DNA of 64,000 nt from Raillietiella orientalis. Lineage: Eukaryota. The notes beneath the pieces are model-generated. The model worked only from the letters and a program-made list of their open reading frames with translations, had not been told where the DNA came from and did no database searches. This document shows positions 3,001 to 64,000 of the stretch, piece after piece (position 1 is the stretch's first letter; every line of letters starts with the position of its first letter). Both the position numbers and the translations under genes were made by a program. The stretch spans positions 10,850,001-10,914,000 of the forward strand of contig JAYWIR010000001.1 in the NCBI GenBank assembly GCA_036172245.1, written 5' to 3'.

Positions 3001-4750
3001 TAATTTCGTTCTGGTTGCGGAATTAGCCTCATAGGAAGCGCATTATTTTCAATCAGAAAACACACACACACAAAAAAAAACATATCTTTTTGAATAAAAA
3101 CACGAAGCACGCATTTGATTTCTTCTGAAATTTCTTCTAAAACTGAATACATGTCTTTACTGAGTGTGTGCCTAGGACGCCGCTCTCCCGCTTCCCAAAC
3201 ATCGCCTATCGCTGGTGGGGTGCGTAAGCGCTGTGCACCCCCAGCTCACCCCTGCAGGGTCGACAGGCAAAAAGACCTGCATGAAGGAGCTGACGCGGGA
3301 TGCCCGCGCATCTCCTGGGTGATCTTCGGTCGGCTATCTCAGTCCGTGCCCGGACGACGCTTGCCGCGGGCTCGGTTCCCTTGGATACGTGAAGTAGCCA
3401 GAGGACCAGGAGAGAGAAATCGCAGGTGCGAAGGAAGTAAAACTCCCAGGGACTCGGAGAGTGAGGAAGGGGAGACGGAGGGGTAAGGAGTAAGGAAAGG
3501 GGAGAATACGGCCGTCGCAGCCTGGTCACAACGGCGGCTGCCATCGATCTCGGCAGAAGCGGATCGACGATCCCCTCCTCGTCCGAGGGGGAGGCTGTTT
3601 CCTCCCTTTCAAAATCTCGGGAACGGAAGGGGGAGGGGGGGAGAGAGTGGACGAACGGACCTTCGGAGAGACCCCGGAGGAAGGTGCGAATCGGACCAGT
3701 CCTCCTACTCAAAGGCCGTCCCGTGCCTTTGGGCGGGTGGGAGCTGCACCGCTAGGTCCGTTCCAAGCTTGCTCTTGGCACGGCCGGCCGGAAGAAGGAA
3801 AGCACAAAACCAGGACGCGCACACGAAGACCAGTGACTCTGCCGTACATATGACTGCGCCTCGAGCCCTTTTCGGTCGTTTTCGGTTGCTCGTGTTTGAC
3901 CCGTTCTTCCCTACTTTCCCTTTTTTCTCGTTTGCTGCTAGGGCGTCGCTGCCTCCCGGCGGAGGAAATTAGCCTTCTCCTTCCTCCGCAAGGGCCAAGG
4001 GTCGTACGAAAGCACGAGTCCATCTCTTCTTCCTCTCCCACCGCTGCTGCCGGTTCTGTAAGGAGGCTTTTTTTTTTTTTTTCCAGCCGAGTGCCCGGAG
4101 GGCGCCTGGGGTTCCACGTACGCCTCCATGCACGGGCAGAGAGCGTTCAGCGCGCGTTCATTTCCTGCAGGAACTTTCCTTCCTTTCGAGGTCTCTGCCC
4201 TGGGAAGAGCAGCAATCCGTTTCCAAGCAACCGAAGGGTTGGGAGACCGCCACCAGCGAGCTGCCAGCCTGAATAGAAGGCGGCCAGACTGCTCCCCTTC
4301 CTCCTCTCTGGAGGGCAAGGGGCGATGCTACACCCACGACATCACTCCCGAGGAAGCTCTGCCTCCTGGAGAGTTTCCCGGCAGCTCAAGCCACCCTCCC
4401 AATGGCGAGGAGGCGAAGAATGGAAGCGGCACGTCCCAGGTCGCTGCCGCCGCCGTTGTCCAGAAGAGGACCTTCCGCCTCGGGTCCGTGACACAGCGAC
4501 TGCCGGATGCGTGCCCCGGCGGTCAGCGCTCCTCCCACGTCGTGTCGTTGTCCGTCCGTGCCTCCGTCCCGGACTGCCCGACCTCCTCGAGCGAAAGATA
4601 CTAAGTGAAGATGCCACGCTGAGGGAAGGGGATCTCTTCGTGCCCAGCATCTCTTCGGATTTGCGTCCTCCTCCCAAAAAGTCCTCCCTCTTCCTCTTTC
4701 CCTTCAATGCCACCCGCATCTGTTGCCTTGGTTGGCTGAGGGATCTGCTG

Positions 4751-5360
4751 TGATTCTCACCCGGGAACTCCGGAGCATTTATTTATAGATTAAATAAACG
4801 ATTACAATTTCTGTGGTTGGACTAGTGATTCAACCACGTCCTTTTTCGATCGAATCTGCCGCGCTACCAGTTCGCAGACCGGTGTGAGATCCACCACGGC
4901 GTGGGAGGGGAGGAGGCAAGCAAAAAAGAAAAAGAAACAGCATAAAATAAACGCTTTTGGGGTCTGGATGTGGGGTGAGGGAAGGGATCACTGTCTGCCG
5001 GGGGCGGCCCTCTGCATTCCTTGGAGAGTGCCCACAAGCTGCACACAGTCCTTCAGGTGGAGCCATCTCGTTGCCATCCTCATGAAGCGGATGGCGAAGT
5101 GGATGTGGCACCCCTACCGCTCCGTCCTCCCCTTGAGTAGCTCCAGGCAGAGACGACGATCCCACATAAGCAGCAGAGGGCTGCGTGCCGAAGGGCGTCG
5201 CGAACGGGGAGGGGTTTCGGAACGTTCCTGGAGTTTGCCGCCGGGGGTTCCTAGGGTAGCGGCGAAGCGTTTCCAGAGGGGCCGGGAAGTATCCTAGACA
5301 AGGAAGAGCAAGAACGGATGCATTGCAGGTCAGCAGGCACAGGCTCTCCTCCTTAGAAAA
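4751..5360 (-). mobile_element. 5'-truncated, frameshifted L1/Tx1-like non-LTR retrotransposon (ORF2 C-terminus and 3' UTR)
   Basis: The minus strand gives PLWKRFAATLGTPGG, AALCCLCGIVVSAWSYSRGGR and RWLHLKDCVQLVGTLQGMQR*. These match the copies at 47100-47860, 50850-51110 and 52330-52610. TGATCCCTTCC follows the stop, as in the copies at 46879-48170, and the 33-nt terminal cassette lies at 4751-4783. Confidence 0.75.
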
Positions 5361-8300
5361 AGAGTGGAAGAAGAAGTAGAAAAAGAGACCACTTCTCCTC
5401 CTTTTTCTATTCTTTTTATACCTTCCTGGTAACACAATCCCACAAGCGATGGGGTGGAGGAGGGATTCGCGCTCCCCGCAACTGCCACAGTTTGGAATCT
5501 GCTGGTGCTGCAGTAAAGCGAAGGTGGTCTTTGTGCAGTTGTTTGGTGATTTCGCTGTTGCTATTGGCGGCGATAGCTGCTGACGGTGTCAGTAGCGGAG
5601 GCGGTGACATTGCTGTCGCCGCCGGTGGCAGCCGTGGTGGCAGCGCGCGGCTGCTCTTGGTTCCGGAGGAGGCCACGAGGACGAGGCGGAAGGTTCGACT
5701 CCGCGCCAGAGCGCGGAGAGGACGGCGTCGCTCCGGGCGACGACGCCGGCGCTCCCGGAGAGGCAGCGGTCGTCGTCGCAAAAGCAGGAAAAACCACAGA
5801 GCCTCCACCGCGGAGCGGTTCGGGAAGGGGGGGGGGGGATCCGCGGTGTCCAGTGCCTCGCTCGAGATCGCGCTCCAGTCGCTCTGCGAAGCGGCTTCTC
5901 CGGGATGCGCCAGCGGGAAAATCGAGGGAAGAGAGAGCTCTTGCTCCCGGGTGGGAAGCGGAGGGGGAGGGAGTTGGGAGGAGAGCTCCTGCGGGCGCTA
6001 CGGAAAGAATGTCTCTTCCGGTTTCCCGGGGTAACTGCGTGCTTGATCTTCCGGAGAGACAGAGAGAGAGAAATGCGCACGAAGGAATTTTTCCGCGCGA
6101 ATTCGAGCGGCCAGGGAGGGAGAAGACCTTGGGGTATGGGGTCCTCTCCATGGAAGGAGTGTGCTCTTCGGCGCAGGCGCGCGGGGAGAAGTGCGAGAGA
6201 TTGCGCGCGCGCTCCAGACTGGCTCGTCTCAGGGCCAAAGGCGCGCCTCTCGCTTTACTGCGGCTTCTTAGGGGAGGGGGGAGCAGGGGGAGGGAGGAGA
6301 GGGGTGGCGGTCCGCGGAAGGACGGGGGGGGGGATCTTTAGCGCCGTGCCGTCCTGCGCATGGCGAACGCGCGCGTGCGTGCAGCTGGTTTTTCCCCTGC
6401 GCGCTCCGCTCGCCCGCGCGCGCGTCTCCGTCGGTCTGGTGGCGTCTCGGCCGCATCGGAAGGCGACCTCTCGGCAGCTATTTTTAACCTAGGAGAGTTC
6501 AGCTAGTCAGCGACCTCCCCCCGTTGAGAGATTCTGGTAGCCTGAGCGATGCGTGCGACTCTCGGGGAGTCTGGAACCCCCGTAACGGCGCTTCAGAAAA
6601 AATGGGACCGACTATTCGGATTGAATGCCCCTGTCTAGCTTCAAGCGATTCCCAAAATAGGTCAGTTTTAACCGAGAGTGATTCTCACTGGGGCACTAGA
6701 GGTGGAGGCCGCGCGCGACGGCGTGCCACGGCAGCAGCGGACAGCGTGGTGTGCTTTCCGGAACGCTTCCGACGCGGAGCGATCCCTCGGGGCCGACCCC
6801 TTTCGCGGCGTAAGCGCCCGGGTTCGGTGGTCAGGTTCGTGTCTTCGGCAACTCTGAGCGTGTCCAGCGAGTGGGCGGGGAGGGGGGATGCTGCGGCGCG
6901 CACGCTCTCCTCTTGGGCTCGAAGAAAAACATCCGCCTGCGCGTGCGGATGCACGCTCGCGACACTTGGTGACCTGCATCCTTAACTCGCGGGTAAGGGG
7001 GGGGGGGGGCGTCGAGAACTTTTGGTTGACTTTTGGTGCCTACACTGAAATGTGGTGGCACTTGGCTGCAAGCCGTTCCACCGCGCCGCGTGCGCTTGCG
7101 CGGCTCGCTCGAACGGCGCGCCTCGACTAATTACTGCAGCAATTAACACTTCCATCGGTGCGTGTGGGTCGCTGGGATGCACCGGCTTGCTTAAGAATGG
7201 GCGGAATTTTCCTGGAGCGGAGGGACCCCTTGACGCACCCCAGTCGCTTCTAGATCCTTCCTAGAATTCAGAAAATGCGGAAGCTGCACTTTTTTCCACT
7301 CTGAAAAGCCAGGTCACACTGTGTCTGTTCGGGGGGAACCACGCGCTAACGGCCGTTTTTCCGGAACCACTTTTTCCAGCACAGTCGGATCTTCTCCCAA
7401 AAGCCAAACGAGCGCAGCCGAATTCGAAACGTGGAAGAAACGTCGCGTTAGCAACTGCACAGCCCACGCTGGAATCTGGAGCTGCGTCGCTTCGGAGCTT
7501 CTCTCGCCTCGTTCTGGTTTCATCATCGTCGTTTCGAGATTCAAATCCTTCAGCAGCCGTGGATCTTCCGGGCGTTCTTAGATTACAGAAGACTGCGATC
7601 GCGGAGCACGTAAACATGGCGCGGTCTACGGGGCGATGAGAGACTCCCGCAGCCGAGTGGTTAAGTGCGCTTTTGAGCGCTTCGCCTCTTGTTTCGCGAA
7701 GAGCCCGTATTTTAAGGGCAGAGGAATTCGCCGAATTGCAAGCAGTCTAATTTAATTATTATCATTACTACCACGTTGATGGCGTCTCATCTGAGAACTT
7801 CGGACAAGCTGAGGTCATCCTTTTCCGATGAGAGATTTTTGAACTGGCTCGATAATTGCCAAGACATGATCCGAAGCCTTTTCGGCTAATCAGCGTCTCC
7901 CGTGGGACCCTTACACGTGGATTCCGACGTACAGAATGCTCCTTGTAGAAGCCTCGTTTTCTCGCGGAGTCTAACGGAAAGAGATCTCGGTGCTTTAAAT
8001 TCATAAGGGCGTTCAGCTTATCAAACATCAAGGGGCGAAAGCCCGTTTATCCTCGAGTTTATCTCCGGTTTTCCATTCCATTTCCATCCCATACATTTAT
8101 GGAAAATTCTGCACACGACACGCCGCCATATTGCTCACACACATCATCGGTGCTTGCCACCTTGTTAGCACACTCTAATCGGCACAAGCTAAACCAGGTT
8201 TCATAAGGGTGCTCGGAAAATGGGGCGCAGATAAAATGGAATGAAGTTGGAAGGAGGAGGAGAGCATTTCAGAGATCCAAAACGCTGCTTTTTGTTTTCA

Positions 8301-46704: not shown

Positions 46705-48170
46705 TGTTTCTCACCGGTTATGCCCGGGGCAATTATTATGTTAGTAATAAAAATACATTTTTGTGGTAACCCTAACCACGCGCCTGGTACGCTTGCGCAA
46801 CGTGAGGGAAGAGGAAGCAAAACACAAAGAAAAAATAAACAAACCAACAGGAGAGGGGAATTTATACACGGGGAGGAGTGCTTATCACCCGGGTGGGCCG
46901 GGTCCTTTATTTTAAAAACAGACAAACGTGTAGGACCATCGGCCCTACAACGTCCTAGACAGTTCGGAAACTGACGAGTAACCGGCATGCAGGTCGGCAA
47001 GGTTCGTCTCGGTAGCGGAGGGAGATTGGACAATGAAAACAAAAACACTATTTACAAAAAAATTGGAGGGCCAGGGAAGGGATCACATTCCGCTGGAGGG
47101 CGTCGTCCTCTGCATCCTATTTAGGATGTTGGCAAGTTCCATCCGAGTATGAATCCAGGCGACGCCGTCCGCAGGAAAAGCAGGGCGAAGCAGATGGCCA
47201 GATGGCGTCCCTATCGCGCCGTCCACCTCTCACGCAGCTCAAGACCGCCACAATCCCACATAGGCAGCAACGAGCTGCCAGGGATGAGGCAGGCGAAAGG
47301 GCATTGAGCACGAGGAGGCACTCCTTTATTTTAAAAACAGACAAACGTGTAGGACCATCGGCCCTACAACGTCCTAGACAGTTCGGAAACTGACGAGTAA
47401 CCGGCATGCAGGTCGGCAAGGTTCGTCTCGGTAGCGGAGGGAGATTGGACAATGAAAACAAAAACACTATTTACAAAAAAATTGGAGGGCCAGGGAAGGG
47501 ATCACATTCCGCTGGAGGGCGTCGTCCTCTGCATCCTATTTAGGATGTTGGCAAGTTCCATCCGAGTATGAATCCAGGCGACGCCGTCCGCAGGAAAAGC
47601 AGGGCGAAGCAGATGGCCAGATGGCGTCCCTATCGCGCCGTCCACCTCTCACGCAGCTCAAGACCGCCACAATCCCACATAGGCAGCAACGAGCTGCCAG
47701 GGATGAGGCAGGCGAAAGGGCATTGAGCACGAGGAGGCACTTCATCACGTCCCTGGGATTCCCTGTCGGTGCACCAAGGGCCGTTGCATATTGCATCACA
47801 AGAATCGGAGGGCAACACAGTCAATAAGCAGGTGAGAGAGGGACTCCCGTTTCCCGCACCTATGGGGAGGGGGGAGGGAATCGAGGAAGGGATCACGGTA
47901 CGTTGCCAGGCGTCTCCGGCATCCTGTTCAGGATGCTGGCAAGTTCTGTCCGGATAGTGCCCAGGTGGGGGCACCTCCAGGAGGTCCTCAGGAAGATTCG
48001 CGCCCAGGGAATGGCAGAGACGATGCAGATGACGATCAGATGCAGAGACGTCGGGGGTTTACGACGGCTGTATTCCAGTGACGTCTCCACCAACGGAACC
48101 ACCTATGGACAGCGCACTTTTCAGAAAGTGGCCCACATGGAATCCACATGGAATCATTTCAGGTCGAACG
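46705..48170 (-). mobile_element. Head-to-tail stack of four 3'-end fragments of the L1/Tx1-like family
   Basis: Fragment 48170-47865 has PHLGTIRTELASILNRM, a stop and a short UTR. Fragment 47862-47322 starts at the zinc finger RCGKRESLSHLLIDC. Fragment 47321-46879 is a duplicate carrying the terminal cassette. Fragment 46878-46705 is UTR only, has the terminal cassette and resembles 52695-52780. Confidence 0.8.
46903..47740. repeat. Tandem duplication, 2 x 419 bp (46903-47321 and 47322-47740)
   Basis: The two units look identical by eye, and the ORF track shows duplicated peptides. Confidence 0.95.
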
Positions 48171-50399
48171 GTCTCCCGTAAGAACTGGGTGTAGCGAATT
48201 ATGCCGTGTCAGTGACCGTGACCACACCGAACCACGTGCTTTGTCACCACCGTATTTATTTTTCCGATGTCATAACTCGAACAGAGCTCGGATGCGATTC
48301 AGGGTTTCTCTCAAGCAGCTGCTTCACGTTACGATGGTAAACTGTCCTCTTCCGATTATTAGGATAGGCGAAATCCTCTATCCCCTCTATCTCACCTGTT
48401 AATTCATAAGCAAGGCTGCTGAGAATTTGATGAGATGGAAGATGGCCGCGCCTATATATGACCATCAGCAATCGAGTCCTCGGATACCTGGAACGCACAT
48501 CACCAAATCTGCCGGATTATGAAGGCAAGTTGGAACCTTGGGCTACTTTGTGCCAGGCAGCAGGCCTTCCTTACCTAAGCATTCACCCCATCGAACAGGC
48601 CAGAGAAATGTGTCCGTCCGTCGTCATGGAACGCTGCTCGGACCGTGCTATCCGGTAACCGATACTTGGCTGGAGGAACCCGTGCACCGGTTGCCACTTT
48701 TTGTCGGGCAGCCTCCCCAAGTTGGAACCAGCAGCCCAACTGGTGGTCCACAAGGCGACAGATCAAGGTTGTAAAGGAGACTTTTCTCACGAGAAGAATG
48801 CTCCTGCCCTGAGCAAACGGTAAGGAAGCACAAATCCTCCGAGAGGAACTCTGACATTTTGTCAGGCTTCATGGTTGGGGTGATATCATTCTTCAGGAGG
48901 GGAGGGGGGGGGGGGGAAGGGAAGAGGAGATCACATTTTGGAAACGATAGTTGGCGTGGAAGTGGCTACATCACTAATGAGGATGCTCCTTCGAAGTGTA
49001 CTCGACTTGGCGATGCGTGGGAGCGCGAAGCGTGCGAGGCGATATGCGTGGGTGTTTCCTCTTGAATGTTCACTCTTGGAAGGTGCGAACATGAGGTTAA
49101 GAGCTGCAACCACGTGTGATCAGCGGGCGCATTGCGTGAGTTGAAGGAATTCCATTTTCTGCTAAAAAAAGAAAGTCATAGTTTCCCCAAAGCTCACTCC
49201 AACTTGGGCAAACACACGCCCACGAAAGATATTACGCACCCATCGTTCTGGGGACGACATACGTGGCCGCTATGAATGCACATCACGTGATCGGTAAATC
49301 GGATGTTATTGAATGCTCTGATCTGATCTCCGATATACAATATAATGTGTACAGTAATATGCTTGAGACATGCAGCAAGCCGCATGGATTTACGCATTCC
49401 TTCCGTGTTCGGGAATTCAGTAGTAAGGAAAATTGATGCCAGGCAACAAAAAGGAAAAAAAAAGTGTCTGCTGGTGTCTGCGCGTTTGCATTCTGATCGA
49501 TGATGGAGCTCATATTTGCGAGATGCACAGAAAGGATTCAAAAACCGCGTCAGGTGGGCAATAACTGGGTTGCGTTTGAGGTCGCTCGGAGCAACGGTTT
49601 GCAAGAAGTTCATTTTTCATGCCGTGCTTGGCGTGTTGGCAGCTGAAAAGCATTTCTTCTATGCTTCCACGAGCCTTTCGTATTCGTTCCTCCGTACGGA
49701 AACGCAGCGACTAATTCCATCAGAAGCTTTCGTTTACAGCAAAGCCGATGTTTTTTCATGGAGAGGTCACTAATATGACCGAAGCAAGTGCATTCCATTT
49801 CATATCTGCCCATGGTTCGGCTGTTACAATTTGCACATGTCCTGTGTCCTTAGCCTATGCAGCCCCATACATACGAATTTTGAGAGGTTTGATGGTACCA
49901 ACTGTCCTTCATGTTCCTCAGGAGAATGCTTTGGCTGGCGTCCACTGCGGAGTGTGATTGAGTGCCAGCAGTTGCGGGTCCATGCCTAAGAGTTGAGCTC
50001 GCGTTGATTTCAATGGGTTTTGCGAGTACGTATTATGAAAAGTCAAGTTGGTGAAGTACGGTACGATGCTCCGGTGTAGGCAATGAAGAACTCAGCAACT
50101 CAGCTTTTGACGGGTTGTGAGCCCTTGTTTAGATTATCTGTAAGCGATTTTCTCAATGAAGGGAGCTTGGAGCCACCGGGAAGATGGGACTCACGTCCTT
50201 TCTTGCACTCCATCGCAGCCGCATCAACCGATGTGGGCTCCAGCTGCGTAAGGGTGGCTGCCTTGGTTCGGAAAAATCCAGGATGGATCACCTGTCGCCC
50301 TGCAAACGGTAGTGTTTAATTGCAGGAAACCGTTCGCACGTGGGACAGTGCGGCATGCAACGCACACAACAGGAACGACGGTTCCTGTTTGGGTACTTC

Positions 50400-51150
50400 T
50401 GAAGTAGCACGCTCCGAGAGATCCTGGAGGATCCGAAGAAGCGAGCGTGGTCAGGAAGAACCCCCCTCGCTGCTGCGCTGGCCTCCCTAGTGGAAGATCA
50501 GGACAGCGATGTTGCGGCGAAGTGGGAGGTTAAAGCAACCATCTCCGGAAAGGAGAAGAAGATTGGAGAGTGTTAGACGGGCCAGCTAACAGACGCTGCC
50601 ACCCCGAGTACGCCTCCCAATGGACTTGTGCGCTGGGGCGCGCTGCTCGATGTTCCCATGGAACATCTGAAGTGGCTCCCGGTGCTCATGAACAACTCCA
50701 CCCTCCCCTTAAAATGGCAGGAGTCGGCTCTACTATTGCAGCACTGCGGACTCCCCTGCAACGCCCACCGACACCACTGGACCTGGAGAGCGGTCGATCC
50801 CAACTGTGTGAGGTGAAGGGAACGGGAGTCCCTCCCCCACCTCTTAGTGAATCGTGTTGCCTTTCGGCCCATTTGCTTCCTCTTTGCCGCGGCCATCGGT
50901 ATCCCCTGTGGCAACCCCAGGGACGCATTGAAAGCCCTCTTCGTTGCCGAAGTCCTTCAGCCAGCGGCCTCGATAGCAGCATTGTGCTGCCTTCGCGGGA
51001 TCGTCGCCGCATGGAGCACGGCTACGGGAGGACCACGCGATAAAGATGCCATCCAGGACGCCGCCCAATTCCTGAGGAGGGCGTCGCGGAGGCCCCACCT
51101 GGATCCGTAAATGGAAGAACGAGCCCAGGTCGTCAGGCGAACAGGGAGAA
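50400..51150 (+). mobile_element. Decayed L1/Tx1-like ORF2 C-terminal fragment
   Basis: LPLKWQESALLLQHCGLPCNAHRHHW, DPNCVR, AAAIGIPCGNPRDALK and AALCCLRGIVAAWS...FLRRASRRPHL, with stops and frameshifts. Confidence 0.7.
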
Positions 51151-51419
51151 GTCGTCATTGGCACCGGTCGATGAGACGTGGAACGTGGATGGTCGGACTG
51201 CATCTACCTGTGAATCTCCACGTGCTGGTACTTCAGGTACCTTCGCGTTCCGTTGGTGGACTTCCGCATAGCAGAAGTCCGGTCCGTCCTTCTCGAAAAA
51301 GTACAGATGGCGGTCGGCCCGTTCCCACACGGCAGCTTTTGCTCGCCGCGACTGGCCGAGATGTGAAACTCGCTGGAAGCCGCCCTCCTCCGCTCCCTGC
51401 TTGTAGTTTGCCTCGCTCC

Positions 51420-52780
51420 TCCTGACAGACAGAGAGGGGCCGAGGATCTTTTGAGGGAAGCCCTGTGGAAACAGAGTCCAACTCAAAGACTCAAAGACTT
51501 GTGTGCTCCGCGTAAGGATGGTGGACTGGGCCTCCTTTCGCTGGACAGGATGGAGAGTCAGAACCAGTTCATAAGACCTGGCCTCGCGGCGAGAGCGTGG
51601 ACCGCGCTGTAATGCGCAAAAACACAGCTCCTCGCAAAGATTGCAATCAGCTGCGAGGGACTCACCTCCCTCCTCGTCGCTCGCGAGAGATTGCTCAGGC
51701 GTTGCGGATACCAACTTTGCCAGATGGTTGCCCTGGTGAAGAAAACCTGCATCTTCTGTCTCTCCGCAAACTGCACCACCTGCCTTCAGGAATCGGTCTT
51801 CGCCTGGGGAAAGATCCGTGGCGCGAGGAAGACGAAGTACACCTGCCTGCAACGAGGCATAGACGTCCTCGACCCGCAGAAGAAGATGGACCTCATCCAC
51901 TCCGCTTGACACAGTGCTGCCCTTTCTAAGGGACGCAAGGGACAGTACAATTTTGGCAAGGTGTTGGTAAGAGATTTGCTGCGTGGAAGCAAAGAAGAAA
52001 CTATCGTTGGCATGGACAACTCGGGAAGGGACAGAAGCGGCGGTCTCAAGTGTTCCACTCCAAAGACTTCTACGCTGGGGAGAGCTGCTCGGCATCTTCC
52101 CGGAGAAGTGGAATTGGCATCCAGCATGTGGGAACAGTGGCACTCTTCCCTCAAGTGGCTGGAGTGGGCGTTGCTGGTGGCGTATGGGGGAATCCTGTGC
52201 AAAGCGCGCCTTTGCCACTGGACGCAAGGGGAGGATGGGTGCTCAGTAGGTCAGGTGCAGGAAGAAGGAGACTCTCTCGGACCTGCTGTTAGACTGTGTT
52301 GCCCTCCGATCATTTTGAGATCGCTTCGCGACTATCCTAGGAATCCTGGTGGGTGACCCCTGACATTTGCTGCCTTATCTTCGCGCGTACAGCGCAGCCT
52401 CCACCCGCGTCCCTGGACGTGCTCTGCTGTCCTCGCGGGATCACGGCGGCTTAGAACGCCGGTAGAAGATACCGAAATGGCAGGCGCTCCATCCACTGAG
52501 CGTGAATCTTCCCGAAGACCGCCTCGAGATGGCCCCACCTGGGCGAGGCACGAACGGAACTTGCCAGCATCCTGAACAGGATGCAGAGGAGGAGGTCTAG
52601 CAGCGTACACTGATTTCTTCCTCCATCCTCCCCCTCCGTTCCTCGAAGCAGATTTCTCCAGAACCTACGAACTGATCTTCGGAAGGTTCGTTGCAAGTGG
52701 TGGAACCTAGAGTTCCACCACACCAATGTATTTTTATTGTTTTATCTAATAAATGACTTGGCATAACCGGTTGTTCATCA
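51420..52780 (+). mobile_element. Decayed L1/Tx1-like ORF2 3' part plus 3' UTR
   Basis: RKDGGLGLLSLDRME, SLKWLEWALLVAYGGILCKARLCHW, VLCCPRGITAA and RWPHLGEARTELASILNRMQ. There is a UTR hairpin GTGGTGGAAC...GTTCCACCAC and a terminal cassette at 52748-52780. Confidence 0.75.
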
Positions 52781-53471: not shown

Positions 53472-55360
53472 TCAGTTGGCCAAAGTCACTTTCCCCTCGT
53501 TGCCACTAGAGAGCTCCAATTTTATAAGAAGCTTTCTTATGAGTTCCACTCCAATGGTCCAGTGTGACTCGGTCTCTTTTCGAAGCCCGTGGTTGAAAAG
53601 CAGGTAGCAGACATTGCTTCCCGGATAGGCCTGCCGAAGAAACAATGACATAAAAATAATACGGAATGAATGATTCCTCCTTTCAGTCTTGTCAGTTGGT
53701 CAGCCGAGAATAGCCTCAAGCGATTCCCGGCAGACAAGCATCCTCTGACTGCTTGAAGCAGCCAAAGGCTGCGAAACGTTTTGTTCTCTGAGCTGTCCTC
53801 AGAGAACACGATGTCTTCTTGCGCGAGAGAAAGGAGAGAGTAAAGAAGAGACGTTCCGCGCATGCAAGCAGATGCAGGAGCTGCCACCCTACCGATCGGA
53901 ATTTTTGCTCACCGGGATTGAGTACTCCATGACGTTAAGAGAAACTTGCACTCCGTTGCCGAACGAGTAGGTCACGTCCTTTTGTTTCTCAGGATCGCGG
54001 CTGTCGCAAGACATCTATGCGTGGCAAGTGATCATCAAGGCCACGGCCATCGGCGAAGCACCAACCTTGTACAGACGGTTGAACGGCGGGGAGGGTGTCG
54101 CGGGAATGAACTCCAGCAACCATTGCATGAAGTCTTCGGGTACTTCCATAAAGTTCAAGCCAGTGTCGATCACGGCGCTTGTTTCGTCGCCTATTCCGAA
54201 AGACTCACCTCCATAGGAAATCCTGCAAGTCAGAAATTGGGGAAGGGATCGTTTGGTGTAAGGGTGCGTTTTTCAGACGGATGCTGGGAAGGAACGAAAT
54301 TTCCCCCGAAGGTCCAAACTTCACGCGACGCGGTTTGCAAACTCGGGGGTGGCTCCCTGCACGCCACCGTCTCTGGTAAGCGCGCAGGGTCCGTCGCTTG
54401 GGACACCCTCACGAGCTGAAGGGGTGCTTCCTTACCCTTCTAAAGAGAACGAGGCCATATTGGGCCACTTCTTCCCACTCCGATCCAGGAGTGGTTTCGA
54501 CACGGACTGCCGGACTTTCTTCCAATCTTCGGAGTCGACTCCACCAAAGGTCACTTTGGAACCGAAATCCCTGGTTGGAGGAGAGGCAAAGCGCTATTCC
54601 CGGAATTCACATCTCTCCTTACTCTCCAAGGGAGAATCCGTAAATCTTGGGTTCGGCAGCAACCACTTGCAGACTCAGCAGATCCAATCCAAGCATCCCA
54701 TCTCCGACCATGAACTGATGCAGATACGAGCTGTTGGTTTCCAGGGTGAACAACTCCATGAGCGACTCTCGCTCTTCGAATGCGAGCGTCGTATCGATAT
54801 TTCGAACCTAAAAGGTCGGAGTGCCGGAACTCTGAGAGTAGCACCTACCTTGATGTTGTCCGCACCCTCTCTTGTGCTTAAGTACACTCCCAAGTACCAT
54901 CTCGAAAGGCTCTTTCTCCTATCCCTCCATGTGGAAGACTTAGAAGGGTCGAATCGCTTGTGCGTTTCTAGAAGAAGATCACATCACATTGAAGAGGCAC
55001 CGCTATTCATCCAGACGTGTCGCTTACTGCACCAAGGCGTTTCGCATTGAATGTCCGGAACCCAGAGACCACTGAACGTGCTGTCCACGTTGACAGCGAA
55101 TTCTTCCTCCTCAGAGCCTGCCTCGACGACGGTGTACCACTGACGCTGAAAAGTGGGGTTTGGGGTCGCCTCGGGCGTAGTCAGGTAGCGCGGTTCTCAC
55201 CAGTACTTCGTGGAATCCCAAATGGAGGGTGTGGACCGGCTGGTCAGTACTCACGCGGGCAACCCTGGAGAAAGAACGTGAACGAGCCACAGTCTTGCAA
55301 AGTAAAGACCTGAAGATCTTACCCTGACAGGGCCACACAGACAAGGAGGACGGCGAACAT
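53472..55360 (-). CDS. Secreted pepsin-family (A1) aspartic peptidase homolog, 9 exons, 358 aa, non-canonical first catalytic motif
   Basis: Exons 55360-55323, 55264-55201, 55145-55028, 54967-54849, 54807-54623, 54570-54436, 54222-54066, 54014-53913 and 53630-53472 total 1077 nt, are all GT-AG and in frame. Motifs: signal peptide MFAVLLVCVALSG, FAVNVDSTFSGLWVP..C....C, HKRFDPSKSST, DGMLGL, VTFGGVD, AVIDTG, WTIG. Confidence 0.9.
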
Positions 55361-55420
55361 GCTGGAGGCGGATGCTGAGCGATTCCTCTTCTGTGGAGGA
55401 ATCCCGACTCGCTCCTGCTC

Positions 55421-55428
55421 CTATATAG
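55421..55428 (-). promoter_or_regulatory. TATA-like box of the aspartic peptidase-like gene
   Basis: TATATAG lies about 60 nt upstream of the ATG in otherwise GC-balanced sequence. Confidence 0.55.
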
Positions 55429-58400
55429 CAGGAAAACGAAACGGGTGTTCCGAACATCTTTCTTTCGGAGTCCGCCAATTGGCGGGCCTGCAGTATCAGG
55501 TGATGCCTTCATCTCGCACGTATGGGTTGCCGCGAGAGAGAGCAGGCTTCGAATGAAACTTTTTCTTAATCGACGCGTACAGAATGCACGTGGGAGGAGG
55601 AGGATGCCCCGTATACAGAGTGTAGGCAAGGTATGCTCCTTCCATGTCTGGTGAGAGAGCGTTTTCCCGCTGCCACTCGCGACCACTCTATTGAACTGGG
55701 AAACGGACGTGACTTCGCGTCAGGGGGTTCGCTCCCTGCTTCGCGCCAGCGACAAGAGCCAGCGGCAAGCACTTCGACTGCCGAGCCGAAGGCCGCTCAC
55801 TTACCCCGTCAGCTGATTTCCGGGGTCCCTTGTGAATCGCGACAGACGGTTGCGAGATGAAAACGACGGGCTCATCCTTTCGTGGCGAGGTGAGCGTCTT
55901 GAGCCCAGGTCCAGGGCTCCACCACCAGGCCTGCCGTCGCGAAAGGCTGACCATCCGATCGGAGGAGGCGAGCTGCGCCCCACGAGGAGCCGCTCCGGAC
56001 AGCGGCCGTAGCGCATTCTCAAGACAGGCTGACTGCGGACCGTCCGAAAAACCGAGGAGCCAAACGGCGTGACCCGAAACGGAGGAACCGTCGCCCCTGC
56101 CGGAAAAGAGTCCTTTTTCCCGGAGCGGGTGCTCGTTTCTGCATCGGCTAGACGAACGGCCATCTTGAATCCAGGACCCAAGCTTGCGGAGTCCTGCTCC
56201 AGCTGATGAACTCGAGAAGGGCGCCATCGGCTACGGATACCCACCTGTACCGCACCGCCGCACCCACGAGAGGCGGAGGATCCCTGCTGCTGGAAAAATT
56301 CCTTCAAGCACGAGTGAACAAAGAGAAGCTCAGTTCCTCTTATTCATTCGCGGTGGGTCGTCGCCTGCCTCGCACATTCGATAGGAAAGGTGTGCGACGC
56401 AGGACATGGGGGGATTCTCCCGATTCCTGGCAGGGGGGAAAAAATTCAGGTTTCAATCGAGATTCTCGAAGGCTTGGGTGCGATCCTGCGTGTCTGATGA
56501 TTGCTCAGGAAAGAGCAAAGGATGAGAATCGCGACTCTCCCATGGCTGCATCAGCGAAGTGTTTTGCGTGTGGTCTGTTGCATTCCGAGCCCAACTGTTT
56601 TGCTGTTCACGAAAGTGCGTGCAACGCGATCAGTGATGGTTGATTTGGCGTGGGGGGTCTGCTCTTCCGAGATATCTTCGCTGAGAAACATCGCGTGCGG
56701 AACATTACGATTCTCATGTTGATTTTCCCGCAGCATCCCAGCACGCGAACCGAGATCATCGTTCTGACTGCGGAAAGCTAGATCGCAAGCGGAGAACCAG
56801 AGGTTGCTCAAGACTCAACCTGCCGTTGTTAAGCAAAGCACGAGTCGTTCAGACGGGTTGAACGATCCGCTGCATCCACACGGAGGACTGTGACGTTTTT
56901 CTGTCTCCCTGTCTGCAGTCAGCTGAGATTTGACGCTGCCCGACACTTGCCATATGCTCAGCTGCGTCATCGCAGCTGAGCATATGGCGTCCTCATATTT
57001 ACGCAGGAAGAGTTCCGCCAATGCCATCTTGTCCTGCTGCCTTCAGTGCTTGGAACCGTGGAACCTGTGCAGTTCTCCTTGGCTCCCTTCCACCTGTTCC
57101 TGCTCGCTCCCCCTCTTCAATTCTTATCCTTGTCGCTCGCTCCTAGCAAGCTCCCGGCTACCTCTTCACTACGGTTGGTTCCCGCGGGTTGCCCTTCGCT
57201 TTAGGCTTGAGCGCTGACTGAGAGTCCACGGCTCCATGCGTGGATTTCTCCAAGCGTGCGCATGAGGCTGCTGTTCCCCCCGCTCCCATTCGCGCCCTCT
57301 GTGTGCGCAAATGAAGCCGTGCGCTGCGCCGCTCGTCTAGCCTTGCTGGAAGTGACCAGCAGGACCGTGGATCGCAAGACGTCGGAAGCAACCGCTCCCG
57401 AGACTGGACTGAACGGCGTTTGGTTGCTTGACTGACAACGAGGGTTGCTCGAGTGTTTCCAAGCGTGCCTAAGACCGAGGTCTTGGGCCGTGTGCCACAA
57501 ACCCGAAGTTTCTGAAGGTGAGGCTGTCCCTTGCCTCGTCGTTGTCCTTCCTGGTGTTCCGTGCCTATCTCAAAGCCGTATGCGAGACTCGAGCTCAAAC
57601 AGGAGTTCGTTGAGGGTTCGAATCCCCGCGTGGAGGATGGACGCCGAGAGATTAGGTGCCCCATGGGTTCCGAGTCCCACGGAGATATCAGCGAGGAACA
57701 CAAAACATACGCCTGCGAGGTAGGAAGTGCCAGCCGGGGTCACATTTCTTCATCGGGAAAACTCTCCAAGCAAAGAATCCAGCACGTTCCATTCCGACCT
57801 TGCCGCATCCTCGAGCAAATCTTCGGCTTTCTCGTTTTGCCAGTCTACAGCCCACACATTGTTGACATCTTCGGGTTTCCCTGTCCTGTGACCCGGGAGT
57901 TTCGAGTGTCGAAGTACCGTCCACCGGTGTTCAAATGGACGCTCGGATTCCGGATAAAGAATGCGGGGCAGCAGCTGCTCAGAACCAGCTCTCCCCTTTT
58001 TCCTCGGACCGAAAGGCCGTCGCCGGGGTTTTTCTCCGAATGGACGGACGGCAGATGCGACAGCTAGGAATGCGATTGGATTTTCTGTGCTGCAGGGGAA
58101 GATCCAGTCGAGGTGCTGCAGACCAAACGGCTTCTTTTCGAGCACCGCTTCCCGCCCGAAGGTCCTCCCGTGCTTCGGCTGCCGTGAAAGACTCTTTTCT
58201 CAACACGGAGATGCTGGCCGAGTGCAGCATGGATGCGTGCTAGGAGACGCTTCATCCGGATGATCCATTCCTATTTCTTAAGAAGGTATCCGGTCCTTTC
58301 CTGTCGGTAGGCGTTCAGGAGCTTGGCGAGGTCAAAGTTCAGTGGGCTTCCTTTGGAGTTGCAGCAGTGGCAGCTGCGGTTCTTACCCCACAGCAGCCCT

Positions 58401-58789
58401 GCTGGCATGTCCTCGTCACTCCACGGTCCAGGAAGATGCTTCTCGTCCTCGGAGATCCCATCGTACCTGACTTTTACTTCCTTGCAACCCAGAAAGGTTT
58501 CGTCTCACGCTACGGCTTCACGTAAACGCCCGAATCAATTGCTCCAGTGACTCATGCCGTTAGCTCACGCATACCTGTTTGCTAGGGGCAAAAATAGTGA
58601 AAAAGGGAGATGGGAGGAAGAAACCCACACAAATGAAAGAAGGAAAAACAAATGTACACAGGAGGGATGAGGAGATCACGTGAGAGATCACTGCACGAGG
58701 TGCGCCCGTTTGCACGCGGCCCGACTCGGCCCGGCCCGGTAGGCACACCTTCCTTGCCCCCCTCTTGCGCCCCCTGTTTTTTGTTTTCC

Positions 58790-60222
58790 CGCCCCCCCAC
58801 TCGGCCAAGCTCCAAGCGCACAGCCTGTTGAGGAACGCTCTGTGGGGACCTGCGAGGTCCAGGATCCGCCTCAAAGACTTGGCGGCTCCGCGGCGGGATG
58901 CTGGCTTAGGCATCCTGACGCTGGAGAGAATCGAGCTGCAGGTGCAGCTTCGAATGTTGGCCCTGTGCGCCAACCTTTGGTCCACTCCGTGGTGCGCTCC
59001 CGCGCGCCTGCTCCTGCGGCGCTGCACCGGCAGCGATGGACTTCTGTCGCTGCGGCCGCATACGGAGCGCGCCACGAGAAGCTTCGGTTTCCCGTTGAAG
59101 CCCCTCTGCCGGCTCCTGGCAGCCCAGGAATGGATCTCCTGCCGCCCAACGAACTTTGAATCCTGGCGGCAGGAGGCGTTGCATGCCTGGGCAAAGCACC
59201 AGGATGTTTCCCTTCTGGAACTCCGTTGCGCTCACCTCTCCCCGTACTGCACGGTGGATGAGGTGTGCAACAGCCAGGAGAAGCGGACTCGCCTGGCCGT
59301 CACCCCCCTCGCCGACGCGCTGTCAGCCCTCAGGGCAAGAGATGACAGGTGCCAACCGGCGAGGTGGGAGGTCGTCTGCACCATCGCAGGAGGAACACGA
59401 CCCATAGGAGGCTGGAGGACTTGCGAGCTGGCAGACGCCGCCACGCCTCGCCACATCCCGAAGGGACTCCTTCGGTGGAGTGAACACTTGAGTGTGCCCC
59501 CCGAAGAACTTGTGGTCCCTCCCTCCTGTTTGAACACTTCCGTGTTCCCTTTAACTTGGAAACAGGACGTCACCATGCTGGTGCATTGGGGTTTTCACTC
59601 CAACCAGCGGACGAACCGTGTTTCCGGGGGAGCTGTCTCCCCAAACTGTAAGCGGTGCGGGGAAGTGGAAACGCTCCCGCACCTGCTCCTGGACTGCGGT
59701 GCCCTCCAAGGACTGTGGCGGAGGCTGCCCTCGGCTCTCCTGCACCAGGGGGACACCGCGAGAGACTTGATGCGCCGCTTCTTCACGCCAGGCGGCCTGT
59801 CTTTAGGTGCTGTCGTCGCAACCGTGTGTTGCACCCGCGCCATCGACAAGGCCCACCGAGAGTTGGAGAAGCTGGCCATCCTTCGTCAGCCCACCGGATT
59901 AGCCAGCGCGAACATGTCGTCGGCTGCCAAGTGGGCCCATCTACCGGAGGGCGTGAGGAGAGAGATCGCCGGCATCCATCGCCGGTTCTGAAAGGAAGGA
60001 ACGGCCGTACCAAAGACCCCTGTCCCCTACCCTCCCCATATCTTTATTTTTATCTTTTATACTAGTGTATTTGTGGTCCCCTCCCTCGCGTTCCGGACTT
60101 TTTGTATACCGACCTGCGTGTCGGGGATCCCACCCCCTTCGTCTCTTCTGTATCGTTTGTCCGGGAATTCTGTTCCCGGATAGTTTTTCAATAAACGCCC
60201 CGGCGCACCCGGGTGATAAACA
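58790..60222 (+). mobile_element. 5'-truncated L1/Tx1-like non-LTR retrotransposon, best-preserved copy
   Basis: The frame is uninterrupted to 59991 and contains APRRDAGLGILTL and the zf-RVT-type CKRCGEVETLPHLLLDC. The 3' UTR is pyrimidine-rich, and the terminal cassette is at 60190-60222. Confidence 0.85.
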
Positions 60223-61610
60223 ACCGACCCCCCGCGATCGTTTCGATCTCCTGGACGTCTCCTGCGGGGATCACGTGGATCTCCTGCAGAAGCGCCAGGT
60301 CGAAGTCACGCAGGGTGGCGGCTGTGTGTGTCGCGCAGCCCGTTGACGTTCCAACAGACCACGCGGATCCGACGGCGACAGGCGAGTCCAGGTGTTATGC
60401 CTGGGAACCTGGCGGTGGGGGTCCCGCCACCTGTTGGGGCGGGTCGCTGGACGGGGTTGGCGTCTCGCCCACCAACTCCCCATCCTTCTTAGGTGCCGAC
60501 GTGTCCGGCTCCTCATGAGAAGGCGGTGTTCTGCCTACCTGTACGCCCACCTCCATGGGTGCGGGATGTTCAGGTTGGACGGATGTAGGGGGCATTGCTC
60601 TCCCCTGGGCACCCTCCTCCATTGGAGTCGCCTGGTCGTCGGCTTCCGAACGTGGGAGATGCCCGTCTTGGGCTCCCACGCTGCCGTCCACCACACCTTT
60701 CCCCATTGCATCTCCCTCGCTCGGAGGCGGAATGCACCTTCGGGATTTCTGGGACTTTCGTCCCGATTTTCGTGGAGGTGCTTCCGCGGAGGAGGATGCA
60801 CTTCCGGCCTCCCGGTCGGACTCGCCTGCGGGGGCCATTTTCGCCGGTGCCGGCCTTCGCAGTCCCTTCCGCGAGGGGTTCTCGCTCTCTGCGAGCGTTG
60901 CCGCAAGCTCCTCCGCGGCCTTCTCGAAGGCGGCGTCCTCGCTGTCGGCGAGCTTGTCGCGCGGCTGACCCTCTGCTTGCGCAGAGGTGCGCCTTCGCGC
61001 GCATCGATCGCGCCGGGAACGGCGGTTGAAGGCGTATCGCCTCGGGTGGTGTCGGCAGGAACGTTAATGCGCTCCAGCGTCACCGTGCACTCACGGAGAG
61101 TTTTTACGCGCGGCACGGATTTCGCTTTTGCTCCGGTCGCGTTTTTCTCCGTTTTTTTCGGGACACTTCTGTCCCTTTTTACTTTTTTGGCTTTGACAAG
61201 CTGCCAGCCCTCTTCTCCCTCTACGGTTTCGGGGACCTTGTCCTCCGACGCCGGTTTTGGGGATTGGGGTAATGGCAGCTGATCTCGGCCAATTTCCCGC
61301 AATTGCACTTTTTCTTTCCCCGCGCGTTTCCCTTGCTCGTTTTTGGCGGCCGGGGGAATCGGGGTGGGGCGTTTCGGGCACACACGACGGACGTGGCCCT
61401 TCTCCTCGCACATGTAGCACTCGATGTTCGGGCACCTCTTTCGGAGGTGACCTACTGCATCGCAGTAGCCACAATACCGTGGCTTCCCCACACACCACAG
61501 GTCAACCGACTCGCTTGCGACCTCTAGTTTGTGGGGGAGTTTCGCATTTTCTTTCGGGGTGACTCGCGCTGCGGCCATGCCCCCGAAGAGGCGTCCGTAG
61601 CCCTCAAATA
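60223..61610 (-). mobile_element. L1/Tx1-like element: ORF1 (two CCHC zinc knuckles) and start of the ORF2 AP endonuclease
   Basis: GKPRYCGYCDAVGHLRKRCPNIECYMCEEKGHVRRVCP and EGWQLVKAKK, then IRVVCWNVNGLRD and DLALLQEIH (60370-60270). It is cut off by the plus-strand copy. Confidence 0.85.
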
Positions 61611-64000
61611 TGTGCACTGTGGGAGTAGTTCCACTGAATGCCAAGTCTCTTCGAGGCTTTCCGGACACCGGACCAAAAGTCTGCAGGAACCCTTGTTTGG
61701 TGATGTAGGGGTGGAGCGCGGTCCCCGCTCAGATATGCCGAGGAGAATTGTGCATCTGGCTGTTGTCGCTCTTTTGCCCGGATGGCCTCATTCAGGGAGT
61801 CTCTGGCGAACTGACGAATAACCGCGTCAGGACACGTTAAGAGTTTAAACGCGGAGTCGGTGGCCACGATATCAGCCTCCTCCACCAGGATCAGCATGCC
61901 CAGGAGGGATCCTCGGGCCACACAGCCGTACAGATACTCCGTCGAGGAGGCTTTTGCGTCAGCGGAAGGATCTCTTGGAGCGCTTTCTTGAGAATGTTGT
62001 CAATCTCACTCCAGAAAGTCATGGATTTAGAGCCCATTCGAAGGGAATGGACAAAGGAGAGGAAGACAAATGTCTTCAGGGCATCGATCTCCTGCCACAA
62101 TGCCAGTGGCGCATCGAAAACTGTGTCCACATCGTCCAGTATGTCGGTGTAGAGCGCATGGCTCCGAATAGCATCGAAGTCCACAGGCTTTCCGAGATAG
62201 TTGCATGTGCGAGCGTCTTTGAGAGCGGGTGTGGGATCGCCAGCGATCTCAAAAGACATCTGTCTGACTGTTCTGGGAGTGGACACGTCGTAGTGGAATG
62301 AGGCACGTTTTCTGGCATTTATCGACAGCCCTAAACTCTAGAGATACAGCGCGTGTACTTGCAAGCTCTCGGCGTCCTTTGTTAAGACAACCAGGTCATC
62401 CGCATAAGCTAGCAGTGTCACTCCGGACACTTTTGTCTTGATGCCCTGGCATGTGGGTTTTATGGCTACTTCGAACAGTAGTCCAGAGAGAGTGCGGCCC
62501 TGCTTTACCTCACTAGAGATGTACATGGGCGGAGAGAGCCCGGTAGAGGTCAAAACCTAGGTAGGTGGTGTTGTCTGTGTACATGTCGCAAATCAGTTCC
62601 ACAGAAGTGTTGCCTGTTCCGGCACAGTGGAACGCACAAGGAAGCTGTGAATGGGGGATCGAGGCAAAAGCGTCCTCTAGATCCATCCACGCCGCACAGA
62701 GTGTGAGATGCTGCCTCCGGCTATAGTCCATGAGATGCGCAAGCACAAAGTTATGCTCTCGCACCCCCCATCGAAGGGAAAAAAAAATCCCCTTTCATGA
62801 GGACCTATAACCGCGTTCCAGTGAATCCAATCTCGCATGCGCCTGGCCATGCATTTGGTAAAAATCTTGGTCAGCAGCTATGCCGAAGTCCCAAGGGAAC
62901 GGCTGAAGGCAGGAGATGCACCGAAGAACTTGGAGAGGGTGCGTATGGATGCTTGCGGGGCCGACCCTGTGGGTATCCCGTTGAGGACAAGTCGAATCGC
63001 ACGTCTCCGATTCCTGCTATGTAGGCGCTGAATAGCCCTTGGGGTTGGATGGCAATCGATTGAAGCGAGAAGGAACGGAGGCGAAGAGCGTGTCGAATGG
63101 TCGTGTAGATGGAGAAGAGAGTTCGCACAGCCAGCCTCAACTGTCAATGGTCGGAGGACGCTGAGCTAAGTCATCTCGAGTTTGGGTAGCCTCGTCAAGG
63201 AATGCCACGGGACTCAGCGCATTGCGGGCTATCAAACAACGTTGTCCTCGACGGCGCCCTTGCACGCGTGCTCGTCCAAGGATGACTCGGAGCTACATTC
63301 TCCTAGGGGTGAGGCTCGCTTGCATCAACGAGCAGGACGAATCTGGATCCAGAGGACGGGCGGTGATCCTTGCCTCTGTTCAGATTCCCCGCTCTGAGGG
63401 TGGCGGGTCCGAGTACGCGTGGCCTGTGGATGGTTAGCATTGAGCGGCATTCGGCGGCTACGTGCTCGCACTGTTTGCCACTCCTGCTCAAGAGGCGGGC
63501 GGGGGCCGGCGGGACAGGCGGTTGCGCACGCTCAGATCTTGGTAGAAGAACCGTGTCTGGAGCGTCGCGCGACCCCTTCCGTGGGTCTGCTGGCCTACCT
63601 GTGCGAGGCCGCAGGTGGCCGCGCGCGACATCCTCACGGTAGTCTGACCGAGGCCGCGTGGCTCTATCAGCGCTGGGAGGCAACGTTGGCTGGCCGCCGC
63701 GGATGCGTGGTTGTTGATGCCGGCGTTCCTGTCTGCCCGGAGCATCATGCCATCATGCTACGGTGGTTGGAAAGCGCCTTCTGGTTATGGAATCGTTGGC
63801 CGCAGTTGGCAGCTGGGCAGACAAGTGGAGGAGGCAGAGCAAAGGGTCGAAGAGGTCTGGGGCCACAACGATGCCTCCACAGAGGAGGAGTTGAGTGCTT
63901 GTCGCACTGCCTGCAGATAAAGTAGGTTCCGTTGTTATCGGAATCCCGTGCGCGGTATGAATGTGTCGCCGGAGCGATCCTAGGACGCGTTTGGATTCCA
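61611..64000 (-). mobile_element. Degenerate early-branching (RLE-type; NeSL/Utopia/R2-like) non-LTR retrotransposon RT region
   Basis: KGF..GVREHNF, AWMDLEDAFASIPH, VKQGRTLSGLLF, LLAYADDLV, YLGKPV, APLALWQEIDALKTF and DSAFKLLTCPD, with Cys/His-rich remnants near 63900. There are many frameshifts, and the C-terminal nuclease is missing. Confidence 0.8.

Follow-up and report, generated by a model that had tools for sequence, protein, structure and literature searches.

Cassette-bearing retrotransposon copies in the window

The DNA analysed here is a 64-kb stretch of contig JAYWIR010000001.1 (positions 10,850,001 to 10,914,000; the window), and the subject is a family of L1-like long interspersed nuclear elements (LINEs) whose copies end in the same 33-nt cassette, formed by AATAAA, a short stem-loop and a terminal CA. 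A preliminary description of the window had listed five such 3' ends and proposed an L1/Tx1-like family with a structured, defined 3' terminus. In the reading favoured here, to which we give a probability of roughly 0.6, the cassette is encoded by the element and forms the 3' terminus of a diverged, probably animal L1-clade lineage, and would work as a two-in-one module that sets the end of the element RNA and directs a hairpin-dependent, stringent-type reverse transcription.

The five cassette-bearing 3' ends in the window are labelled A, B, C, D and E, while F and H denote further pieces. Each cassette is preceded by a pyrimidine-rich 3' untranslated region (UTR) of 168-240 nt and, upstream of it, by the C-terminal tail of a LINE open reading frame 2 (ORF2) carrying a C-x2-C-x7-H-x4-C (CCHC) motif. 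This motif is seen in E and C and is found in decayed forms in A, D and H. The copies and pieces are as follows.

58745..60222, + strand: copy E, 5'-truncated, with a 435-codon ORF2 tail that is still open (58684-59988) and a 3' UTR of 231 nt
51115..52780, + strand: copy D, 5'-truncated near the end of the reverse transcriptase (RT) region, with frameshifts and stops (5' end approximate)
46879..47866, - strand: copy C, 5'-truncated inside the CCHC motif, inserted into the 3' UTR of copy F
4751..5496, - strand: copy A, 746 bp, with its 5' truncation immediately ahead of the CCHC motif (PNCGSCGERESLLH)
47867..48020, - strand: F, an ORF2 end (..RTELASILNRM..), its stop codon and the first ~30 nt of its UTR (5' limit approximate)
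46705..46878, - strand: B, the 3' part of the copy F 3' UTR, cut off from F by the insertion of C
50236..51109, + strand: H, an ORF2-tail fragment of the same kind, ending at the stop codon, with no UTR or cassette preserved

The 5' end of E was placed at 58745, where contigs from X1, a DNA sequencing run that yields short contigs aligned to the window, diverge from it; their consensus reads in frame as VLPERATIW, to be compared with LPERAAVWN in the database protein P0001. Over 46000-62000, 718 X1 contigs were aligned. Many short ones, with similarities mostly of 80-95%, cover E and the element next to it (58745-60417), indicating that E and the neighbouring families are multi-copy in that organism.

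The ORF tails of the copies share only 28-47% protein identity. Region 51367-52583 of D matches residues 21-435 of E at 28-38% protein identity, C matches E at 47% identity over the CCHC motif, and H is 37% identical to residues 190-387 of E, while A aligns to E over the motif only. F and D are 77.7% identical over 148 nt. The UTR of F stops at 47867, where C starts abruptly, and it resumes as B after the end of C at 46879, which shows that C was inserted into the F/B UTR. Together, the UTR part of F and B make up ~204 nt, inside the 168-240 nt range of the other UTRs, and the UTR of B resembles that of A. Five elements, as in the preliminary description, can still be counted as independent (A, C, D, E and F/B), although B should be read as the 3' remnant of F and not as a short copy of its own.

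Some further features of these copies were noted. The stop codons of F, C and A (47893, 47084 and 4990, element strand) lie in a common context, GTGATCCCTTCC, which is followed by a C/T-rich tract; the context of the D stop is a decayed GTGATCCCTTCC, and that of E differs. Measured against the CCHC motif (PNCxxCGxxESLxH), the independent 5' truncation points of A (5496) and C (47866), which belong to different subfamilies, differ by only 13 nt, and this near coincidence may reflect a truncation hotspot or may be fortuitous. Copy C, otherwise decayed, holds a 100% identical 420-bp tandem duplication (46903-47322 and 47322-47741). On the element strand, its junction falls inside the cassette directly after AATAAAGGA, from where the sequence jumps back to the ORF tail; the duplication is either a very recent event or an assembly artefact.

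Sequence and geometry of the cassette

The five cassettes, each followed here by its full 33-nt sequence, are:

4783-4751, - strand: cassette A, AATAAA TGC TCCGG AGTTC CCGGG TGAGAATCA; full sequence AATAAATGCTCCGGAGTTCCCGGGTGAGAATCA
46737-46705, - strand: cassette B, AATAAT TGC CCCGG GCATA ACCGG TGAGAAACA, stem register shifted by 1 nt; full sequence AATAATTGCCCCGGGCATAACCGGTGAGAAACA
46911-46879, - strand: cassette C, AATAAA GGA CCCGG CCCAC CCGGG TGATAAGCA; full sequence AATAAAGGACCCGGCCCACCCGGGTGATAAGCA
52748-52780, + strand: cassette D, AATAAA TGA CTTGG CATAA CCGGT TGTTCATCA, decayed; full sequence AATAAATGACTTGGCATAACCGGTTGTTCATCA
60190-60222, + strand: cassette E, AATAAA CGC CCCGG CGCAC CCGGG TGATAAACA; full sequence AATAAACGCCCCGGCGCACCCGGGTGATAAACA

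Letters and coordinates agree exactly with those of the preliminary description for all five, and the fixed length and spacing that it claimed were confirmed, the cassette measuring 33 nt in 5/5 copies and the terminal 40 nt aligning without a gap (MAFFT). In B, compared with D, an extra base in the 5' arm is balanced by one base less in the tail, and AATAA..CA is still 33 nt long. The distance from AAUAAA (AAUAAU in B) to the terminal CA is 25 nt in every copy, a spacing within the canonical 10-30 nt range of cleavage and polyadenylation. Inspection of the 3' flanks, which begin CAGCAG, TTTCTT, CTCCTC, TCCTAG and ACCGAC, also bore out the absence of an A tail: a run of A after the terminal CA was found in 0/5 copies.

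To what extent such cassettes arise by chance was estimated from 100 dinucleotide shuffles of the window. The pattern AATAAA-N6-GG-N5-CCGG-N-TG had four exact matches in the window (A, C, D and E) and none in any shuffle; with up to two mismatches the same four were found, compared with 0.48 expected, and 1/100 shuffles reached four. For the 3' half, CCGG-N5-CCGGGTGANAANCA with up to three mismatches, A, B, C and E were recovered against 0.81 expected, and 2/100 shuffles reached four. A stricter pattern built on A, C and E had no exact match in collections of metagenome, prokaryote-genome and viral contigs, a zero that serves as a specificity control only and is expected for a eukaryote-specific repeat. 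A chance origin of the cassettes can be excluded.

When the window was scanned with an unfiltered covariance model, only the five cassettes, which match by construction, and the truncated duplicate in C (47337-47305, E = 5.1) were returned. A sixth, decayed cassette had been considered on the minus strand near 58590, on a vague likeness seen by eye; it was missed by the covariance model at E values up to 10 and was rejected.

A conserved block at the end of diverged 3' regions

Mean pairwise identity among the five cassettes is 0.70 (range 0.55-0.88), compared with 0.46 in the shuffled control, and reaches 0.73 in global alignment. Immediately upstream, this similarity is lost. From -93 to -33 the mean is 0.50 (shuffled control 0.47) and from -193 to -93 it is 0.48 (shuffled control 0.49). 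The earlier statement that the upstream UTRs and ORFs are very diverged holds, with the UTRs at the shuffled level. A diverged X1 contig, aligned piecewise on E, behaves in the same way: it skips 462 nt of UTR, and its last piece, 31 letters long, starts exactly at 60190. The copies thus have what characterizes stringent-type LINEs, a conserved 3' tail among otherwise diverged lineages.

This abrupt fall to chance level just 5' of AATAAA could also be produced by exchange rather than selection, either through recombination or template switching between L1 lineages or through gene conversion among neighbours, and four of the five copies do lie within 14 kb. The cassettes themselves are nevertheless diverged (55-88% identity), their variants track the UTR subtype, and A is located 42 kb from the nearest other copy; the diverged X1 copy, moreover, also aligns from exactly 60190. 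Such an origin of the likeness is considered highly improbable.

A second explanation takes the cassette for a cleavage and polyadenylation module and nothing else, in which the hairpin would tune the spacing and tails would be absent through priming at the last templated bases or because they were very short. AATAAA is present in 4/5 copies (AATAAT in B), and its fixed distance to CA fits the geometry of a metazoan site. The host does look animal, an exon of the NPC1-like type matching mammalian NPC1L1/NPC1 at 1e-54 to 1e-48 and yeast NCR1 at 4e-20. Vertebrate L1s, too, end in AATAAA plus poly(A) after similarly pyrimidine-rich UTRs (PMC5381506). Polyadenylation, however, needs neither the CCCGG/CCGGG arms nor UGAKAA, both of which are kept although the UTRs are otherwise randomised, and the usual downstream element would be outside the element. 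Poly(A) priming of the L1 type would leave A tails, which none of the five copies has, and polyadenylation leaves the conservation of the arms and of UGAKAANCA unexplained; a stringent-type tail is the most economical explanation. The polyadenylation-only alternative is judged unlikely, although it is the strongest of those weighed here.

The cassette belongs to the element

All five cassettes terminate a unit made of an ORF2 tail and a 3' UTR. In copy A the boundary could be defined independently by a target-site duplication (TSD):

4743..4750, - strand: 3' TSD of A, CAGCAGAT, directly after the terminal CA
5497..5504, - strand: 5' TSD of A, CAGCAGAT, a perfect 8-bp repeat, one base ahead of the point from which A aligns with the other copies (PNCGSCGERESLLH)

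An 8-mer repeat within 9 kb is expected by chance, but for one that falls so close, to a few bases, to a boundary defined on other grounds the probability is about 4e-4 (a rough estimate). The perfect 8-bp TSD at the homology boundary identifies A as a 746-bp 5'-truncated insertion that stops exactly at ...GAATCA on its 3' side and lacks an A tail.

Some LINEs of the Tx1 group are target-specific (PMC3747384), and the cassette might accordingly be, or be part of, the target site of a site-specific element. This has been largely refuted already, together with a chance or low-complexity match, which the 100 shuffles and the three public collections speak against; we regard it as the least probable of all alternatives. 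The TSD of A lies outside the cassette, and the five 3' flanks are mutually unrelated, a common target sequence at the insertions not being found. The preliminary description had itself named cassettes at element-free sites or at 5' junctions as the outcome that would overturn its proposal. No free-standing cassette was detected in the window by the unfiltered covariance-model search, and none is present at the 5' junctions of A, C and E. It had also taken the restriction of the GGCATAACCGG arm/loop variant to copies of one UTR subtype as a sign of an element-encoded signal. This was verified: GGCATAACCGG is limited to B and D, which also have the upstream AATGTATTTTTATT in common. These results support the cassette as a part of the element and not a target site, a question settled by the TSD for copy A.

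Predicted RNA structure of the 3' end

The CCCGG-N5-CCGGG of the cassette (hairpin 2) appeared in all five single-sequence folds, and the same helix was obtained with RNAalifold. Standard pairs are formed in 22/25 cells, compared with 60-64% when the partner is slid by one column. The three one-sided changes are all C-to-U and would keep G.U pairs on the sense strand, while giving A-C mismatches on the other strand; in the D cassette, two C-to-U changes keep G.U pairs. The CCGG arms are thus largely conserved, as first described, with decay in D and a 1-nt shift in B, whereas the loops (AGUUC, CCCAC, CGCAC and CAUAA) are lineage-specific. From these folds, an RNA helix at the terminus is plausible rather than proven.

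A second predicted stem, hairpin 1, occurs 6-26 nt 5' of AATAAA in all five minimum-free-energy folds:

4813..4837, - strand: hairpin 1 of A, GTGGTTG / CAACCAC, 7 bp
46763..46779, - strand: hairpin 1 of B, GTGGT / ACCAC, 5 bp, by itself no better than shuffles
46925..46954, - strand: hairpin 1 of C, GTAGGGCC / GGTCCTAC, with an outer extension
52697..52721, + strand: hairpin 1 of D, GTGGTGGAAC / GTTCCACCAC, 10 bp
60158..60182, + strand: hairpin 1 of E, TCCGGGAA / TTCCCGGA, 11 bp, loop UCU, 7 nt 5' of AATAAA

Best-stem tests against 2000 dinucleotide shuffles each gave p = 0.28, 0.97, 0.10, 0.04 and 0.006, and 0.008 when combined by Fisher's method. In E, the best stem has 12 bp and 11/2000 shuffles were as good. 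Within the subtype A/B/D, one compensatory pair (U-A to G-C) was observed; the stems of C and E are unrelated in sequence. Pairing of the U-rich tract with the UGAUAAAC tail was seen only in the minimum-free-energy fold of E, was absent from the consensus fold and was dropped.

A terminus in which the stem-loop is followed by 9 nt, the last two being CA, and an A tail at 0/5 insertions are also what could be expected if the RNA end were produced without polyadenylation, by histone-like cleavage after CA past the stem-loop or by trimming to a protein-bound hairpin, the tail-less RNA then being the template. No Rfam family, the histone 3' stem-loop included, had a match at gathering score in the window, and around E only a chance-level small-RNA match was found (E = 0.23). 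The stem of only 5 bp and the variable 5-nt loop also argue against this route, and the invariant AAUAAA upstream indicates the ordinary poly(A) machinery. We consider it very unlikely, about on a par with exchange between copies or marginally ahead of it. A tRNA scan of the window gave nothing.

Clade assignment

The C-terminal Cys-His motif (CCHC, zf-RVT-like) that follows the RT in the L1 clade is present in the window copies. The Pfam zf-RVT match in E has E = 0.009 and 17.1 bits, below the 27.5-bit cut-off; the zf-RVT protein P0004 matches E at 1e-10, and among feature look-alikes of E zf-RVT is present in 46% and 24% of members.

A search of 1.84 billion representative proteins with the E ORF returned four matches, two of them seemingly low-complexity or chimeric and one of them good. 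This last, the database protein P0001, matched E at E = 7e-39 with 50% identity, its residues 435-588 aligning with 58744-59205 (E residues 21-175), and its residues 378-591 matched D (51196-51831) at 42.5% identity over 214 residues. P0001 carries RVT_1. Its RT matched human L1 ORF2p at 7e-40 to 5e-39 and R2 at 7e-17, in a comparison with solved structures only, which include none for CR1, Jockey, RTE or I. Longer relatives of P0001 (~30% identity) are mostly proteins of ~1100 residues with PF03372 (APE), PF00078 (RVT_1) and PF13966 (zf-RVT). Seven P0001-related loci were found in metagenome contigs; they are distant (22-35% identity, with one 28-residue piece at 61%), and the cassette occurs in none. 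A homologous-protein search with the E ORF at near and longer lengths gave no match, which is weak evidence.

Taken together, these matches indirectly support an L1/Tx1-like, putatively APE-type family. The earlier assignment as L1/Tx1-like is thus backed by proxy, through the likeness of the P0001 RT to human L1 ORF2p and the combination of APE, RVT_1 and zf-RVT in the longer relatives of P0001.

A proposed dual role of the cassette

In the favoured model, AAUAAA and the CA located 25 nt after its last base would set the end of the element RNA at the element boundary, and would thereby stop the transcript from entering flanking DNA. The ORF2 protein would bind the 5-bp CCCGG/CCGGG hairpin together with the single-stranded UGAKAANCA tail, and the upstream hairpin of variable sequence might assist this recognition. 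Target-primed reverse transcription would then begin at the terminal CA and not on poly(A), in the stringent manner of L2, R2 and SART1. A narrower version, in which an animal L1-clade lineage uses the host cleavage site (AAUAAA...CA) as its RT start to the base while the ORF2 protein reads the terminal hairpin with no need of poly(A), the template possibly being non-adenylated or de-adenylated RNA, is put forward tentatively, as a possibility with rather less than even odds.

Several observations weigh against this model. Among the five window copies, the stem covariation test proposed in the preliminary description found 0/5 hairpin 2 pairs with a compensatory change; the structured terminus that it inferred therefore has 22/25 pairing cells in its favour and no pair changed on both sides, and what is conserved in the arms could be the primary sequence, or something that acts in the DNA, and not an RNA helix. 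Hairpin 1 lies at a variable distance from AATAAA (6-26 nt), and the stems of A and B, taken singly, do not outperform shuffled sequence. The mapping of TSDs to the terminal CA succeeded for the perfect 8 bp of A, the only clean case, and gave nothing convincing for D, E and F/B. In C, the candidate CTCC...ATA (10/16 matches) is imperfect and lies in low-complexity sequence, and was not counted as evidence. Neither an RT nor an endonuclease of this family was detected by a Pfam search of stop-to-stop ORFs over the regions of interest in the window, where all copies are 5'-truncated, and the clade assignment goes through a proxy. The invariant AAUAAA with CA 25 nt downstream would also be explicable by polyadenylation alone. 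The basis of the model is the DNA sequence of five truncated or decayed copies in a single window.

Comparison with known LINE 3' ends

L1 is the textbook relaxed LINE, primed on poly(A) and hence able to copy Alu and mRNAs as well. The relation of this relaxed mode to the stringent one, in which most other LINEs read a hairpin, is a matter of continuing debate (PMC3472496, PMC4176376). The preliminary description had contrasted the 3' stem-loops of L2-type LINEs with the poly(A) of L1. This contrast was too sharp: L1-clade LINEs of the stringent hairpin type, and others devoid of poly(A), have been published (PMC3472496).

In a monocot L1 lineage (LINE1-1_ZM, 'monocot 1a'), the last ~45 nt show a divergence of 0.144 compared with 0.570 for the whole element, and contain a hairpin with compensatory changes (PMC3472496, Ohshima 2012). 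The Chlamydomonas element L1-1_CR has a tail in common with a SINE (short interspersed nuclear element) (PMC3472496). As in the present L1-like family, a 3' tail is conserved in these L1-clade elements; there, the hairpin with its conserved flanking bases is taken as the RT recognition signal (PMC3472496). They differ in ending in poly(A), in their compensatory stem changes and in a conserved loop and flank (PMC3472496), whereas the present family lacks poly(A), conserves its stem sequence but not its loop, and includes AATAAA in the conserved block. No partner SINE was seen either, the covariance-model search having detected no cassette in the window beyond the five LINE tails.

The lack of an (A)n end is shared with L1-clade families of green algae, 13/15 of which do not end in (A)n: 8/15 end in (CATA)n, (CA)n, (CAA)n or (TAA)n, and 5/15 have no repeat (Table 1 of PMC3472496). 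By analogy, the terminal CA could be a single unit of such an algal-type repeat end. Unlike those families, the present one has an apparently animal host and its terminus is not a repeat, and the main text of PMC3472496 reports no hairpin cassette for the algal elements.

In the L2 clade, UnaL2, ZfL2-1 and ZfL2-2 have a 3'-terminal stem-loop and, as here, no poly(A), the structure being bound by the cognate ORF2 protein, which recognises the stem generally and the loop specifically; in the zebrafish elements, a conserved region of the protein serves for the stem and a variable one for the loop (PMC4176376). The conserved stem and lineage-specific loops described here fit this stem-general, loop-specific scheme of the zebrafish L2 elements (PMC4176376). 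These LINEs are from another clade, end in (TGTAA)n-type repeats used for template slippage and have no AAUAAA in the tail (PMC4176376). In R2 and SART1 (R1 clade), reverse transcription begins at a precise point under the direction of 3' UTR structure; they, too, belong to other clades and are site-specific, and SART1 keeps and needs poly(A) (as cited in PMC3472496 and PMC4176376).

Vertebrate L1s resemble the present family in the RT of its proxy P0001, which is nearest to L1 ORF2p, and in a pyrimidine-rich 3' UTR with AATAAA near the end (PMC5381506). In all vertebrate species examined in that paper AATAAA is followed by poly(A) (PMC5381506), whereas in the present copies a constant 27 nt come after it and a tail is lacking; the 3' poly(A) after AATAAA of relaxed, mammalian-type L1 was found at 0/5 termini.

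On whether the family had been described before, a point left for checking by the preliminary description, the answer is divided. That LINEs of the L1 clade can have a specific, structured 3' end is known in principle (PMC3472496). The AATAAA-hairpin-CA terminus itself was not described in the literature searched, a search that lay outside Repbase, where the family may already be catalogued. What appears to be new is the combination, in a probably animal lineage, of a tail-less terminus with a fixed length of 33 nt that ends in CA, a conserved block that takes in AATAAA, and a stem whose sequence is kept while its loop varies.

An L1-like lineage that has AATAAA and a pyrimidine-rich UTR but a hairpin cassette and no A tail would be a useful intermediate for the study of template choice. 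If CA is indeed the RT start and the hairpin replaces poly(A), it would allow a direct test of the gain or loss of poly(A) dependence among L1 relatives. Few processed pseudogenes would be expected from a family of this type, and SINEs with the same tail could exist. The cassette can also serve as a sharp 3' boundary marker for the annotation of these elements.

Other features of the window

The remaining features noted in the window are:

60223-62556 and 58590-58744, - strand: L1-like element on the strand opposite to E, with an RVT_1 fragment (62341-62556) and a CCHC-containing ORF (60538-61728)
58744-58590, - strand: continuation of this element, a UTR-like piece with the stop context of the family and no cassette
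54987-55196, - strand: aspartyl-protease exon amid retrotransposon debris
44818-45231, - strand: Tfb4-like exon
39526-43649, + strand: NPC1-like gene
27641-32783, - strand: NPC1-like gene
10408-11415, - strand: fatty-acid elongase (ELO) gene with three exons and short introns

The opposite-strand L1-like element appears to have been split by the insertion of E. The two NPC1-like genes are ~7 kb apart and opposite in base composition: the one on the + strand lies in DNA of 37-40% GC, and the one on the - strand, which matches NPC1_MLD at 3e-13 and NPC1_N weakly, in DNA of ~60% GC.

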